64,000 bases of DNA. It comes from Gouania willdenowi. Lineage: Eukaryota. Under the pieces are notes generated by a model, which searched no databases, had not been told where the DNA came from, and saw nothing but the letters and a program-made list of their open reading frames with translations. The position numbers were made by a program, and so were the translations under genes. This document shows, in pieces, positions 11,785-51,727 of the stretch; position 1 is the first letter of the stretch; each line of letters begins with the position of its first letter. The stretch lies in NCBI RefSeq assembly GCF_900634775.1, contig NC_041064.1, forward strand, positions 1,444,717-1,508,716, given 5' to 3'.

Positions 11785-11910
11785 ATGTTGGTTTTTGAGA
11801 ACTGCTCCGTGTTTCTGGAGCTAAGGAACTTGTCCCTCAGCGAGAAGAAGAAGCTGAGATCAGCGGTGACGGAGAACGGAGGAAGCATCACCTTCATCAT
11901 CACAGCACAG
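11785..11910 (+). CDS. parp4: PARP4 (vault PARP) exon 1, BRCT domain start
   Basis: 'MLVFENCSVFLELRNLSLSEKKKLRSAVTENGGSITFIITAQ' aligns with my recollection of the human PARP4 N-terminus, from memory and not database-checked. Donor 'cag|gtacag'. Confidence 0.75.
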
Positions 11911-11929
11911 GTACAGATAGATACACAAT

Positions 11930-12181
11930 AGATCTGGTCCTGTCAAAGTGGTGGTCTCGTGTCTCCATCAGTGGTCTCTGGTGGTCTCGTGTCTCCATCA
12001 GTGGTCTCTGGTGGTCTAGTGTCTCCTACAGTGGTCTCTGGTGGTCTAGTGTCTCCTACAGTGGTCTCTGGTGGTCTAGTGTCTCCTACAGTGGTCTCTG
12101 GTGGTCTAGTGTCTCCTACAGTGGTCTCTGGTGGTCTAGTGTCCCCTACAGTGGTCTCTGATGGTCTCATGTGTCCTACAG
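11930..12181. repeat. 30-bp minisatellite (~8 units 'gtggtctctggtggtct(a/c)gtgtctcc(t/a)aca')
   Basis: Direct reading. Every unit ends in 'cctacag'. The last unit supplies the exon 2 acceptor. Confidence 0.9.
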
Positions 12182-12401
12182 TGTTCTTTGGTCGTGGTCT
12201 CTGACGTGTCCCAGCTCAGTTCCACGCGGCTACGCAGCGTCCAGAGGCACCAGGTGCCCGTGGTGAGCCCGGAGTACCTGCACCGCTGTTTGGAGAGCGG
12301 ACAGCTGCTCTCTGTGGACGGGTTCAAGTTGGACACGTCCTCGCCTCACTCAGTTGTTCCTGCTCCGCCTCCACCCAGACAGGCTCCGCCCACAGAACAA
12401 G
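12182..12401 (+). CDS. parp4: PARP4 exon 2, rest of BRCT
   Basis: 'CSLVVVSDVSQLSSTRLRSVQRHQVPVVSPEYLHRCLESGQLLSVDGFKLD...' matches the remembered human 'CTHIILDNADVLSQYQLNSIQ' (recalled, not checked). Phase 0 after exon 1. Donor 'caag|gtgaga'. Confidence 0.7.
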
Positions 12402-12469
12402 GTGAGATATCAACTACTCTCAGGTCCCTCAGAGGTCGAATGCTTAGATGACCTCTGAACTTTGACCTC

Positions 12470-14170
12470 TGATGTTAGTGCACCTCAGTGTGAACAGTTC
12501 ACACTCCAAATACCAGAGTGAAAATGGTGTGATACCAGTTTAAAGTGAGTGTTAAATCACTGTGACACATTTTAAAACAGGTGCTAAACCAGTTTAATTC
12601 CAGTGTGAAACCAGTTTATCACCAATGAGAAACCCCTCTAAATAGTAGTGTGAAACTAGGTTAAAATAATTAAAAAAAAAGTGTTGAACCATTGTAATAA
12701 CAGTGTCGAACTAGAAAACAACCATTTTAAAACAGGTATTAAACCAGTTTAATTCCAGTGTGAAACCAGTTCTGTTTCATCCCTGCTGACTGTCAGAGTC
12801 AGTGCTTTAAGCACTGAATATTCCCCATCGCGCATGCGCAGTGCAAGTGTGTATACCAGCAATGTTGTTCGTGACCCCTGGATGACCCGGAGGAAGCTTA
12901 TATCTTCCGGTGTCACTCCAGGGCACTTTCCTTTTTTTCTGCTCGCGCTAAGTTTGCTGGAAGATTGTGCTTACAGCTACTGCTACAGCTACCACTGCTG
13001 GTAGGTCGGAGCCGCGAGCATTCGCCCTCCAGGAGCTACAGCGGTGAGTGTATGGTTAGTGTTAGCTTCGCCCATTAGCAATCTCTGTTGGTAAGGATGC
13101 ACCAAATATTTAGTACATCGAACATTGCAAAAAAAGCAACATTCGGCCTTCGGTGGAATGAGTTAAAATCAAAGCCATATAGTAGCGTGTGACGCAATGA
13201 TGCAAACAACGTGCAGTGATTTAGAGTCAAAAAAGTTCGTACGTTGCTGCAGAACCAGCAGCAGCTCCTCCTTTCCACACACAAACACAGCCAGACTCTC
13301 TCCTTACCGCTCTCCATTTTCCATCACCACGTAAAAGTGAAGCCCAGCGGCCTCATGGCATCGCCGGGCACTTTCTCCAGATTCTACTCGGTAAAGGTGG
13401 CCACACCCCATCCATTGCCTGTGGTCCTTCGGCCAGAGTCCCCTGACCCTACACACTGAGGTGTGGTAAGCAGGATCCTTCATGACTTTTCTGGTATAAG
13501 TCATTCAGTGCTTAAAGCACTGCCTCTGGAGGTCAGCGGGGATGAAATATTGCAAAGAGTTACAAATGTAACAATGGTTCCATGAATCCCAAATGACCGC
13601 CAGAGCTCCATGTGTGCTCGCGAGAAGATTCTGTAGGAAAGTGTCCTGGAGTGACACCTGAAAATATAAGCTTCCTCCAGATCATCCAGGGGTCATGGGT
13701 GACATTGTTGGTATACATACTCGCACTGCGCATGTGCGAAGGGGAATATTCAGTGCTCTGGCAGTCATTCAGGGTTCATAGAACCATAGGTTCATCTTTG
13801 TTTTATATCAGTGTGAAACCAGTTTAAACAAGTGATAAGCCAGTTTAATACCAGTGTTAAAAACATTTCCATAACAGTGTTAATCCAGTTTTATATCAGT
13901 GTGAAACAGTATAAAACCAGTTTATTACCAGTGTGAAACCACTCCAAATACTAATGTGAAACTATTTTAAAATCATTGTTAAACCAATTTAAAATAAGTG
14001 TTGAACCACTTTGATACCAGTATGAAAGCAGCTTAAAAACGGTGTGAAACCAGTTTAAAACAAGTGTGAAACCAGATTTATACCTGTGTTAAACCAAGTT
14101 AAAGTGATTGTTGAACCAGTGTGAAACCAGCTTCATATCAGTTTGAAACTATTTTAAATCGGGTGCTAAA
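12470..14170. repeat. Degenerate ~25-bp satellite 'cagtgtgaaaccagtttaaaacaagt' (interrupted by the MITE at 12782-13795)
   Basis: The 'gtgaaaccagttta' motif recurs more than 20 times at 12470-12780 and 13795-14170. Confidence 0.7.
12782..13795. mobile_element. Non-autonomous DNA transposon (MITE-like) with ~150-bp terminal inverted repeats
   Basis: 12782-12935 is the reverse complement of 13640-13795 ('...cagtgctttaagcactgaatattcccc(a/t)tcgc(g/a)catgcgcagtgc(a/g)agt(g/a)tgtatacca...cccctggatga(c/t)c(c/t)ggaggaagcttatat...'). It sits inside a 'gtgaaaccagttt' satellite. Confidence 0.6.
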
Positions 14171-14197
14171 CCAGAAGAAATTTGTGTGTGCGTGCAG

Positions 14198-14264
14198 ATT
14201 TGCAGGTGGTTGAACGAATGGACATGACAACAACGATGGGAGTGAAGATCCTGGGAAAGTTCAG
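14198..14264 (+). CDS. parp4: PARP4 exon 3
   Basis: '(D)LQVVERMDMTTTMGVKILGKF'. Phase-consistent: phase 1 in, phase 2 out. Donor 'cag|gtagga'. Confidence 0.55.
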
Positions 14265-14367
14265 GTAGGAACGAGTGTTCCAGGAAACATTTGAGGAACA
14301 ACGACCTGTTCCATCCCAGTGGATCCACTGATGGAACCAGTTCACAGTTCTGTTTTTTGTTTCTCAG

Positions 14368-49445: not shown

Positions 49446-50274
49446 ATTAAAAGTGAATTTTTTAAACTGACCTTGTAAACACTTCCTAATAATTCTTATT
49501 ATTAAAGTTTAATCTGAATTAAGTGGCTGGTTTATTCTGATTTGAATTCTGAATTAAATGATTTTGTCTTATTCCGCTTTAAGTTAATTCCGGTCGTTCT
49601 GAACATGCGCGACTTGCCGCAATTACACGCTGGTGACGACACAATCCAAGATGGCCGCCTGGTCTAGAGCTGATACTATTTATTTAATAAGAACCTTAAA
49701 AGACATGGATATAATGTAGAGTGGATGGACAGAAGAATAAACACAAGGACAGACTTATTACACATGGACATCGGCTTCACTAATGACACGTGGATCATTA
49801 TAAAGTCATTTTTCACTCAACGTCTTGTATATTGGAGGTAGAACAGATGTTCTATTAACAGCTGGCTTTGGTTGACCAAAGTACGTCTTCTATCATCTTC
49901 TCCTGCTCAGCTGAAATGTTATTGTCAAGCTGCTGCTTCAAAACTACTTTCAAAATAAAAGTGACTACAGTTCTTATCATGTGGTTTTCTATGTTGTACC
50001 TGAAAAGAAAAGGTTTGTTGTGTTTTTCCCAATATTAGTGATATGTCACGTTCTCCTGTATAATCAGAACCTTTCCAACCTAAAGAGGAATTTAATAAAG
50101 GTGAATAAACCTTTTCATGTAAACACGAACCAGAACACTTTCATTTTGAATAATGTAATTAGGAATAACTAATTCTGAATTAAAAAACATCATGTAACCA
50201 TTAATATAACCAGAGACACACAAACAGGTGTTGATTCCATTGTTCTCCATTCTCCAGCTGTTCCTGTGCAAAGA

Positions 50275-50306
<32 letters not shown>

Positions 50307-50339
50307 GTAGGACCTGCAGTAATATTGGGACTGTTATGG

Positions 50340-51080
50340 ATGCGCCCCCCCACAAAAAAAAAAAATTCATTTAATATTTTTCTATTGTTTTATTTAATAG
50401 ATGTATTTTTGTGACGCACACTGTTTATATTAGAGGTGATTATTGTTTATTGTTTGAACACAGTAGAGCTTTAATCACACCTAAAATATAAGACCCACAG
50501 ATTTACTTAACAAAATAAGTTGATTTATGACACATGTCACAAAATACAGATGCTTAAAAAGTGACCTGAAATTCCTGTAAAATGAAAATAGATTTTTTTT
50601 TAATTATTATTAAAACAAAAGACAATCTTAAACAACTATATTTCTATACTTTCACTTTGTGAATTTAGTTCAACTAAAATGCATTAAAAATAAATACAAA
50701 TCTGAGATCAAACATGATTAAAAACTAATTCTGAAAAAGTGTATTTTGGGGTCACCAGAGATTATTGATATGGAACAGGGGTCACGATCCAAAAAAGGTT
50801 GGGAGCCATTGGACTAAATACTGTTTATTTAGTTCAAGTCTGACCCATCACTGTGGGATGCTGAGCAAGTCCCTGTAGTTTGGCACCCCACTGGTACCCC
50901 TCAGGGAAAATGGGTAAAAATGCAGGGAAGAATTTTATACGGTGATCAATAATGGTTACATAATTATTGTTATTATTATTATAGTCAAACAAAGGGGGGA
51001 CTTGGATTCAGAAATAAGAGAAAGGGGGACTAGAGCCAAAATAGTTCAACAAACACTTGTAGGGGATCAAAATCTGGGTC
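50340..51080. mobile_element. Second copy of the interspersed repeat seen at 20500-21420
   Basis: Shared blocks listed under the 20500-21420 entry. Confidence 0.5.
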
Positions 51081-51094
51081 AGGGACCCCTACGT

Positions 51095-51420
51095 TTACAG
51101 TCTGTAGTTTAACAGTCTGTGGTTTAACAGTCTGTGGTTTAACAGTCTGTAGTTTAACAGTCTGTAGTTTAACAGTCTGTGGTTTAACAGTCTGTGGTTC
51201 AACAGTCTGTGGTTCAACAGTCTGTAGTTTAACAGTCTGTGGTTTAACAGTCTGTAGTTTAACAGTCTGTGGTTCAACAGTCTGTAGTTTAACAGTCTGT
51301 GGTTCAACAGTCTGTAGTTTAACAGTCTGTGGTTTAACAGTCTGTAGTTTAACAGTCTGTGGTTCAACAGTCTGTAGTTTAACAGTCTGTGGTTTAACAG
51401 TCTGTAGTTTAACAGTCTGT
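51095..51420. repeat. 15-bp minisatellite 'aacagtctgt(a/g)gttt' x ~22
   Basis: Direct reading. About 100 bp upstream of the last parp4 exon. Confidence 0.9.
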
Positions 51421-51516
51421 ATGGTCAGTAGACGTAGTAAAGAGTCAAAGGTTTAAAGGTTGATTAACTGCGTGTGGTTGTTTTATTCTGAAGTGTAAAA
51501 GGCTTTTATTTTGTAG

Positions 51517-51727
51517 CAGGGTGGAGAGGTGGGAGGTGGTGAAGAAGGCAGCAGACTGGGTGCGCTGGGCGGACTGGCAGTATCCCAGTATCTACAGCCG
51601 GCTGGAGTTGGCTCTGAGCTGGGAGGCGTTCACTCGTCAGTTGCTGGGATACGAGGACGTCCCTCCGTTCTCTGAGCTGCGTGGCCTCCACCTGCAGTTG
51701 GTCCCGCCTCCTCTCCTGGTTCACTGA
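51517..51727 (+). CDS. parp4: PARP4 terminal coding exon (MVP-interacting C-terminus); stop at 51725-51727
   Basis: '(S)RVERWEVVKKAADWVRWADWQYPSIYSRLELALSWEAFTRQLLGYEDVPPFSELRGLHLQLVPPPLLVH*' versus the remembered human 'EWVRRTEGQYPSICPRLELGNDWDSATKQLLG' (recalled, not checked). NAGNAG acceptor, so the start is 51517 or 51520. Confidence 0.7.

Follow-up and report, generated by a model that had tools for sequence, protein, structure and literature searches.

We conclude, with a probability of about 0.96, that the 64,000-nucleotide stretch of Gouania willdenowi DNA analysed here (contig NC_041064.1; hereafter the window) contains an intact orthologue of parp4, the gene for vault PARP (vPARP), an ADP-ribosylating enzyme located within vault particles, with 34 coding exons and a product of 1,834 amino acids in this teleost. 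The coding sequence (CDS) comprises 5,505 nucleotides (nt) on the plus strand, extends over ~40 kb and has no internal stop. It starts with an ATG at 11785 and ends with a TGA at 51725-51727, and the whole coding region lies inside the window. All 33 introns are of the GT...AG type, and all 33 junctions are consistent in phase. The original prediction, made from the letters of the window alone, had proposed a complete parp4 gene at 11785-51727; both ends proved exact, as did its description of a multi-exon, plus-strand gene with a GT donor and an AG acceptor at every boundary. However, it had counted 33 coding exons where the model needs 34, the short exons at 14198-14264, 26953-26999 and 33988-34058 being easily overlooked. 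Its consistent phases were borne out, whereas the one inconsistent junction set that it reported (32 of 33 consistent) disappears with 34 exons and most likely reflected an overlooked short exon.

When the whole protein was compared with PDB, human PARP4 (11jf_P) was matched with 1162 bits and an expectation value (E) of 0. Model residues 2-1213 aligned to human residues 4-1215 and model residues 1675-1820 to human residues 1570-1716, so that the two proteins are colinear over human residues 4-1716 except in the disordered linker, which could not be aligned; this agrees with the predicted PARP4 identity. The next families in PDB were PARP2 (~60 bits), PARP1 (42) and ITIH4 (~30), with a weak match to ITIH1 as well. 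All database relatives that carried a specific family name were teleost PARP4, the others being unnamed or generically labelled. It is extremely improbable that the exons belong to an ITIH-like or VWA5A-like gene or to a PARP1-3 paralogue, or represent a chance juxtaposition of two genes. VIT-vWA modules do occur in ITIH proteins and in VWA5A, which also has a distantly MVPID-like domain (PMC10450202), and the weak ITIH4 and ITIH1 matches point the same way; but one continuous, phase-consistent open reading frame (ORF) links BRCT, putative WGR, HD (helical domain) and ART to VIT-vWA and MINT (the MVP-interaction domain), the human PARP4 score of 1162 bits compares with 60 for PARP2 and ~30 for ITIH4, and the Arg that contacts the major vault protein (MVP; human R1689) is present here and absent from VWA5A (PMC10450202). 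The locus is an ordinary orthologue of a vertebrate gene family that is already known.

Placement of exons and splice junctions

Several plus-strand ORF fragments between 12 and 52 kb of the window resembled pieces of PARP catalytic, VIT and vWA domains. Four of them, concatenated and compared with a protein collection, matched fish fragments, of which the specifically named ones were 'poly [ADP-ribose] polymerase 4'; against PDB they were colinear on human PARP4 11jf_P (1724 residues), at residues 499-587, 712-769, 854-919 and 959-1004. We then located exons by tblastn, guided by a working version of human PARP4 and by fish fragments. This working sequence served for location only, and conclusions on similarity to human PARP4 are drawn from the PDB copy, except the 44% identity figure given below; orthologue support comes from overlapping partial fish PARP4 predictions rather than full-length proteins. 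The guide matches were colinear on the plus strand from 11785 (human residue 3) to ~51691 (human residue 1720), and the orthologue tblastn high-scoring segment pairs (HSPs) showed no coding similarity outside the 34 exons of the model.

Between neighbouring anchored cores, all phase-compatible GT/AG pairs were ranked by splice score and fit to the reference, and most junctions had one clear best pair. Junctions within conserved domains were ungapped (six residues on each side) in nearly all orthologue alignments that span them, and gaps at junctions were confined to variable linkers. The C-terminal half resolved into the chain of exons 29 to 34 (Table 1), and partial proteins of, among others, Poecilia, Lates, Dicentrarchus, Kryptolebias, Echeneis and Nematolebias back the model on either side of the variable region and at the C-terminus. 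An unsupervised exon-chain dynamic program (codon log-odds plus generic splice matrices) over-predicted, giving 50 exons, and was replaced by this junction-by-junction resolution; it had read through (TG)n/(CA)n microsatellites, taken a THAP transposon ORF at 48576-48741 as an exon and chosen the wrong frame of the exon 30 repeat.

Some places called for a choice. The best sites of exon 2 (12401) and exon 4 (14368) are out of phase, and a 67-nt exon at 14198-14264, one of two plausible single exons between them with a length of 1 mod 3, restores the phase. The other, at 12989-13043, is phase-compatible and has a slightly higher raw score, but nothing in the orthologues corresponds to its peptide; 14198-14264 was chosen because 'ILGKF/RVY' is conserved in them (here and below a slash marks a splice boundary). 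Exon 19 was also considered as starting at 28366, as suggested by Tetraodon and Echeneis tblastn HSPs, which would run through an in-frame TAA at 28459. This stop is only apparent, because the true structure consists of micro-exon 18 and an acceptor at 28482. In intron 29, in-phase candidates at 42395-42550, 43160-43300 and 43371-43412 were left out, having low scores and peptides unlike protein.

Upstream of the ATG, an in-frame TGA lies 16 codons away with no intervening ATG. Since an acceptor-like ctcag sits 6 nt 5' of the ATG (acceptor at 11779), a non-coding exon of the 5' untranslated region is probably present farther upstream. Beyond the stop codon, ATTAAA at 51843, 52000 and 52104 are candidate polyadenylation signals.

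Domain content, functional residues and linker

The Pfam scan found all four families, BRCT, PARP, VIT and VWA, above their curated (gathering) cut-offs, a match of the conceptual protein on which the original prediction had staked its case. Their order, BRCT, PARP catalytic, VIT, VWA, is that of PARP4. BRCT and BRCT_2 covered residues 2-89 (34.6 and 35.6 bits against cut-offs of 21.3 and 27.3; BRCT 2e-8), and the PDB entries of the PARP4 BRCT, 9dev and 9dfo, matched at 1e-11. The PARP match lay at residues 404-562 (90.9 bits, 1e-25), inside the range of the HD-ART crystal construct of PARP4, 8sx1_A, which matched residues 246-571 at 5e-82. VIT_2 and VIT were found over residues 611-728 (VIT at 618-728, 120.7 bits, 4e-35) and the VWA families over residues 871-1026 (VWA_3 at 871-1022, 63.8 bits, 2.5e-17; VWA and VWA_2 also passed). 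The MINT tail matched only PARP4 in PDB, at 1e-28 over human residues 1571-1716. Pfam and PDB thus agree with the predicted order of BRCT, PARP catalytic, VIT, vWA, long Pro-rich exon and MVP-binding tail. Its exon numbers were slightly off, as the helical and catalytic domains occupy exons 7-13 rather than 8-13 and VIT exons 14-17 rather than 15-18, while exons 21-24 for vWA were correct. It had also omitted the putative WGR-like region of exons 4-6 (residues 138-251). This region aligns weakly but colinearly with the WGR-like stretch of human PARP4 and had no match in our local Pfam scan; the fish orthologues that align with it carry the precomputed family PF26166. In human PARP4, the WGR-like domain occupies approximately residues 140-245, between the BRCT and helical domains (PMC10450202, PMC12212138).

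The His of LLHSS, the Tyr of GIYFS and the Glu of DDEYVVY each aligned to their human PARP4 equivalents; by analogy with PARPs in general, we take them to be the H-Y-E catalytic triad. At the NAD site, the codons at 19461-19469 in exon 10 are CAC-TCG-TCC, reading H-S-S and not the human H-G-S. The prediction had given H-G-S here and 'GIYFA' at the Tyr motif, where the sequence reads GAGIYFSA (GIYFSA); both derive from human PARP sequences. Among 18 retrieved fish PARP4s with an 'LLH' site, 17 have H-S-S, H-A-S or H-S-T, the regular-expression match in Echeneis being HEF. Judged from these sequences, the loss of Gly from H-G-S is a lineage-wide substitution of teleost PARP4, and H-S-S is no sign of decay because it is common to other teleost PARP4s. 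Taken as a whole, the prediction was essentially right in substance, with minor errors in detail.

Residues reported to bind vault components are also retained. The BRCT of human PARP4 binds vault RNA through the pair K23/K24 (PMC12212138). K23/K24 and F39, a BRCT residue from the same work, are conserved in the model, in which a KKK triplet at residues 21-23 (exon 1) aligned to K23/K24, and K31 is replaced by Thr. The human MINT spans residues 1562-1724 and contacts MVP at S1614, R1689 and K1618, the last forming a salt bridge with MVP D214 (PMC12280208), and all three equivalents are identical in the model tail.

In exon 30, which encodes the long linker, a 99-nt unit is repeated in tandem and in frame at 44234-44577, with 3.5 copies at 96% identity (Tandem Repeats Finder), and older, diverged copies lie 5' of these from ~44047. 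The unit encodes 33 residues rich in FG and poly-Pro (TGFSFGSGEGFGSALPLSTPGLLFGATPPPxPP), and every one of the protein's 14 FG dipeptides falls within this exon. The repeat also yields spurious long ORFs, in another plus frame at 44039-44602 and on the minus strand at 44031-44555. On the evidence of its sequence, the expansion is recent. Together with the teleost-wide H-S-S, it could mean that the vault PARPs of fish do not function as the mammalian enzyme does, with differences, for instance, in the reach of the tether, FG-type cohesion in the vault lumen or binding of NAD+ and inhibitors, an idea that we consider unlikely. A neutral expansion of the repeat is more probable, since rapid evolution of the linker has already been described in primates (PMC10450202).

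Several points weigh against an intact, correctly reconstructed gene. Every exon boundary was inferred from the sequence: in general from GT-AG sites, phase and orthologue colinearity, but for the start of exon 3, the choice between the NAGNAG acceptors of exon 6 and the joining of exon 29 to exon 30 solely from splice scores and phase. Generic matrices gave low scores to three acceptors (all AAG) and to two donors, those of exons 16 and 17, and the 3.2-kb intron 29 may contain cassette exons. In addition, Pfam PARP_reg had no match in the protein, leaving PDB alignments as the sole support for the helical domain, and the Gly of H-G-S at the NAD site is Ser.

Some of these points would also fit a parp4 copy that looks intact and is silent, namely a recently inactivated or unexpressed unitary pseudogene or paralogue: H-S-S replaces H-G-S, several splice sites are weak by generic matrix, and the introns are rich in minisatellites and transposon fragments. 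Such a copy is nevertheless very unlikely. The 5,505 nt spread over 34 exons are free of stops and frameshifts, GT-AG is found at every intron, and the catalytic triad, MVP contacts and BRCT lysines are all conserved. The GC content of the CDS is 0.55, and at third codon positions (GC3) it is 0.62, well above the 0.38 of the introns; H-S/A-S/T is, moreover, the norm among teleost PARP4s. The gene structure, open frame, domain content and conservation of key residues are shown by the sequence, and the copy is apparently complete and functional.

Homology to human PARP4 suggests that the helical MINT/MVPID at the C-terminus (exons 31-34) would dock onto MVP repeat domains 3-5 within the vault shell. 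Exon 30 would supply a disordered tether of ~430 residues between this anchor and the rest of the protein, namely an interaction module of ITIH-like VIT and vWA (exons 14-29) and a PARP1-like head of BRCT, putative WGR, HD and ART (exons 1-13), which would bind vault RNA via its BRCT and transfer ADP-ribose from NAD+. For G. willdenowi itself, we infer expression, vault binding and enzymatic activity from the sequence.

Exon map and surrounding features

Table 1. Coding exons of the parp4 model. Fractions of ungapped junctions and numbers of HSPs refer to orthologue alignments.
Exon	Position	Strand	Residues	Content	Evidence and remarks
1	11785..11910	+	1-42	Start codon, first half of BRCT	tblastn to human residues 3-44; donor CAG/gtacag; HSPs from nine orthologue fragments
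2	12182..12401	+	43-115	Second half of BRCT and Pro-rich linker	Best-scoring junction; acceptor is last ...ctacag of intron-1 minisatellite; strong donor AAG/gtgaga
3	14198..14264	+	116-137	Linker exon restoring phase, 67 nt	5' boundary least certain of the model; end '...GVKILGKF/RVY', cf. Hippocampus VLGKFRIY, Notothenia ILEKFRIY, Coregonus LSKFRVY
4	14368..14449	+	138-165	WGR-like region begins	Strong acceptor tttgtttctcag; 'PEFPENFNVAKYS' aligns with human 'PHLPQDFEVAKYN'; eight orthologue HSPs
5	15000..15104	+	166-200	WGR-like region	Junction search; 'CCVLELHSCRAS' aligns with human 'VVVELQCSRDS' and fish 'CVLELQS'
6	15239..15391	+	201-251	WGR-like region ends	NAGNAG alternative acceptor 15236 (+1 Gln) scores nearly equal to 15239; 'FPSTSEEALQLY' aligns with fish 'FLSTSEEAVDVY' and human 'KKTSEDASEYF'
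7	17162..17299	+	252-297	Helical (regulatory) domain	Inside 8sx1_A match; junctions ungapped 5' 8/10, 3' 10/10
8	17963..18121	+	298-350	Helical domain	Junctions ungapped 10/10 and 9/9
9	19048..19205	+	351-402	Helical domain to start of ART fold	AAG acceptor; exon 8/9 junction ungapped 9/9
10	19370..19501	+	403-446	ART fold	Presumed catalytic His in 'LLHSSSP'
11	20399..20497	+	447-479	ART fold	'GAGIYFSA' with presumed H-Y-E Tyr; junctions ungapped 10/10
12	21831..22017	+	480-542	ART fold	PDB alignment and junction search
13	23786..23915	+	543-585	ART fold ends	Presumed catalytic Glu in 'DDEYVVY'
14	25526..25668	+	586-633	Linker and start of VIT	(TG)n microsatellite immediately 5'
15	25738..25869	+	634-677	VIT	Strong acceptor and donor; sixteen orthologue HSPs
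16	26514..26600	+	678-706	VIT	Junctions ungapped 10/10; donor GCG/gtagca weak
17	26690..26857	+	707-762	VIT	Thirty-one orthologue HSPs; donor at position conserved with human 'NLQ/DTV'
18	26953..26999	+	763-777	47-nt micro-exon 'DTVKKLHVSAESAST'	Strong acceptor; matches Echeneis 'ATVKKVCVTDEAAST', human 'DTVEKICIKEIGTKQ'
19	28482..28563	+	778-805	ITIH-like	Acceptor ctcttttctcag, donor AAG/gtaaga; 'REFSLDMSVEMP' aligns with fish 'REFTLDMSIEMP'
20	32125..32262	+	806-851	ITIH-like	Eighteen orthologue HSPs
21	32342..32531	+	852-914	Start of vWA	MIDAS-like 'LLLDVSQSM'; donor CAG/gtaggg
22	33988..34058	+	915-938	vWA, 71 nt	Donor AGG/gtgagt; 'YREAFLTTRPIAEARQKAERFIR' aligns with fish 'HTEAFLKAQPLSEVRQAAESFIK'
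23	35981..36168	+	939-1000	vWA	Nineteen orthologue HSPs
24	36240..36339	+	1001-1034	End of vWA	Junction ungapped 11/11
25	37566..37736	+	1035-1091	ITIH-like, C-terminal part	PDB and orthologue alignments
26	39576..39656	+	1092-1118	ITIH-like	Junction search and orthologues
27	39746..39826	+	1119-1145	ITIH-like	'LHKLTARALIRDYEDG'
28	40034..40129	+	1146-1177	ITIH-like	Followed by 70-nt intron
29	40200..40361	+	1178-1231	Conserved core ends 'EDVDFLPYISW', then acidic run	Donor GAT/gtgagt
30	43567..44861	+	1232-1662	Long disordered Pro/Ser/Gly/Phe-rich, 1295 nt	Single open frame; strong acceptor ctgtttctttag; at position of non-alignable variable region of orthologues
31	45582..45654	+	1663-1687	Start of MINT/MVPID ('ELKWTKIFQMQNS')	'ELKWTKIFQMQ' identical in Lates; aligns with human 1571-1583
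32	46296..46398	+	1688-1721	MINT	Ser aligned to human S1614
33	47009..47141	+	1722-1765	MINT	Lys aligned to human K1618; junction ungapped 5/5
34	51520..51727	+	1766-1834 and TGA	End of MINT	Arg aligned to human R1689; C-terminus 'PPLLVH*', cf. Lates 'APVLVH'

Several introns contain repeats. Intron 1 consists almost entirely of a 30-bp minisatellite (11949-12192; 8.1 copies, 94% matches), whose units, each ending in ...cctacag, provide a series of cryptic acceptor-like sites; of these, the last alone, with an exon start at 12182, gives the conserved 'Q/CSLVVVSD'. Minisatellites of 29 nt lie in intron 19 (31308-31630, 11 copies) and intron 25 (38078-38579, 17 copies). Their consensus units look mutually reverse-complementary (TGCTAGCTGCTACATGTTTAGCATTGAGG, CAGCTAGCACCTCAATGCTAAACATGTAG), and the two probably belong to a single repeat family, present in opposite orientations within the gene. 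The 4.4-kb last intron carries a THAP zinc-finger ORF at 48448-48756 on the plus strand (Pfam 4.7e-9), presumably a P-element/THAP9-like transposon remnant. It also carries a 15/30-nt minisatellite at 51093-51421 (22 copies of 15 nt, 92-94% matches), ~100 nt 5' of the exon 34 acceptor, which makes a '(N/H)RLLNYRLLN' ORF on the minus strand.

The window as a whole is vertebrate-like, with microsatellites, fragments of long interspersed (LINE) and long terminal repeat (LTR) retroelements, single-ORF G-protein-coupled receptor genes and AT-rich introns. Trace amine-associated receptor (TAAR) genes flank parp4 on both sides, at 3381-4561 (+) and 56716-57804 (-). The receptor ORFs at 3719-4561 and 56716-57804 each matched Pfam 7tm_1 at ~1e-39, and the best PDB match of the downstream one was TAAR13c (2.5e-58). 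A short intron after 'ISISHFK' appears to interrupt the upstream gene, the equivalent stretch being open in frame in the downstream copy. Retroelement pieces comprise a LINE-like segment at 8168-9546 (+), with a reverse-transcriptase ORF and an endonuclease (a weak Pfam match below the curated cut-off), an LTR-type reverse transcriptase-RNaseH piece at 58498-59273 (-; Pfam 2.6e-16) and a reverse transcriptase-like ORF at 61487-62185 (-) with no Pfam match. Positions 1-3000 are GC-rich (~0.50) and have many overlapping ORFs on both strands, two of which were tested and had no Pfam match.

Comparison with known PARP4 proteins

PARP4 is well described, and named teleost orthologues are already in public databases, so the significance of the locus lies mainly in annotation. 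The useful product is a phase-consistent 34-exon model that includes the short exons of 67, 47 and 71 nt and gives the correct local motifs. It may be of use in comparative studies of vault components, of the fast-evolving linker and of the change from H-G-S to H-S-S in the NAD pocket of fish.

Human PARP4 (PARP4_HUMAN; PDB 11jf, 9bw6, 9bw7, 8sx1, 8swy, 9dev) has the same domain order as the model: BRCT, WGR-like (putative in the model), helical domain, ART, VIT, vWA (ITIH-like), disordered linker and MINT/MVPID. It is 1724 residues long, compared with 1834 in the model, and ~44% identical to it, a figure computed with the working human sequence and not the PDB copy. Of the two proteins, only the model has the H-S-S motif, the Thr at K31 and the recent 33-residue linker repeat. 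The DNA-damage PARPs, PARP1, PARP2 and PARP3, have a homologous HD-ART, with PDB matches of 1e-8 to 1e-16 over approximately model residues 287-541, but lack VIT, vWA and MINT and score ~20-fold below PARP4. The arrangement of BRCT and WGR-like domains in PARP4 resembles that of PARP1 (PMC10450202), whereas in human PARP4 the helical domain is reportedly open in its native state and does not autoinhibit (PMC12212138).

Closer relatives were found among fish. Identity to the model was 62-67% for PARP4s of percomorphs and related acanthomorphs, 53-58% for carp, characin and anchovy, and 51% for a bird, and the highest overall value among the retrieved PARP4 sequences was ~67%, so that the species and genus of the window have no representative among them. 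These values place the source of the DNA among acanthomorph teleosts. The 62-67% range, over ~900-1080 aligned residues, includes Lates calcarifer, Dicentrarchus labrax, Kryptolebias marmoratus and Echeneis naucrates, while a C-terminal fragment of Nematolebias whitei PARP4 was lower, at 42%. The teleost proteins and the model share the micro-exon 'TVKKxxVxxExAST' and the C-terminus 'LLGYE..PPFS.L.GL.LQ....LVH', but their linker exons differ in length and in the repeats that they contain.

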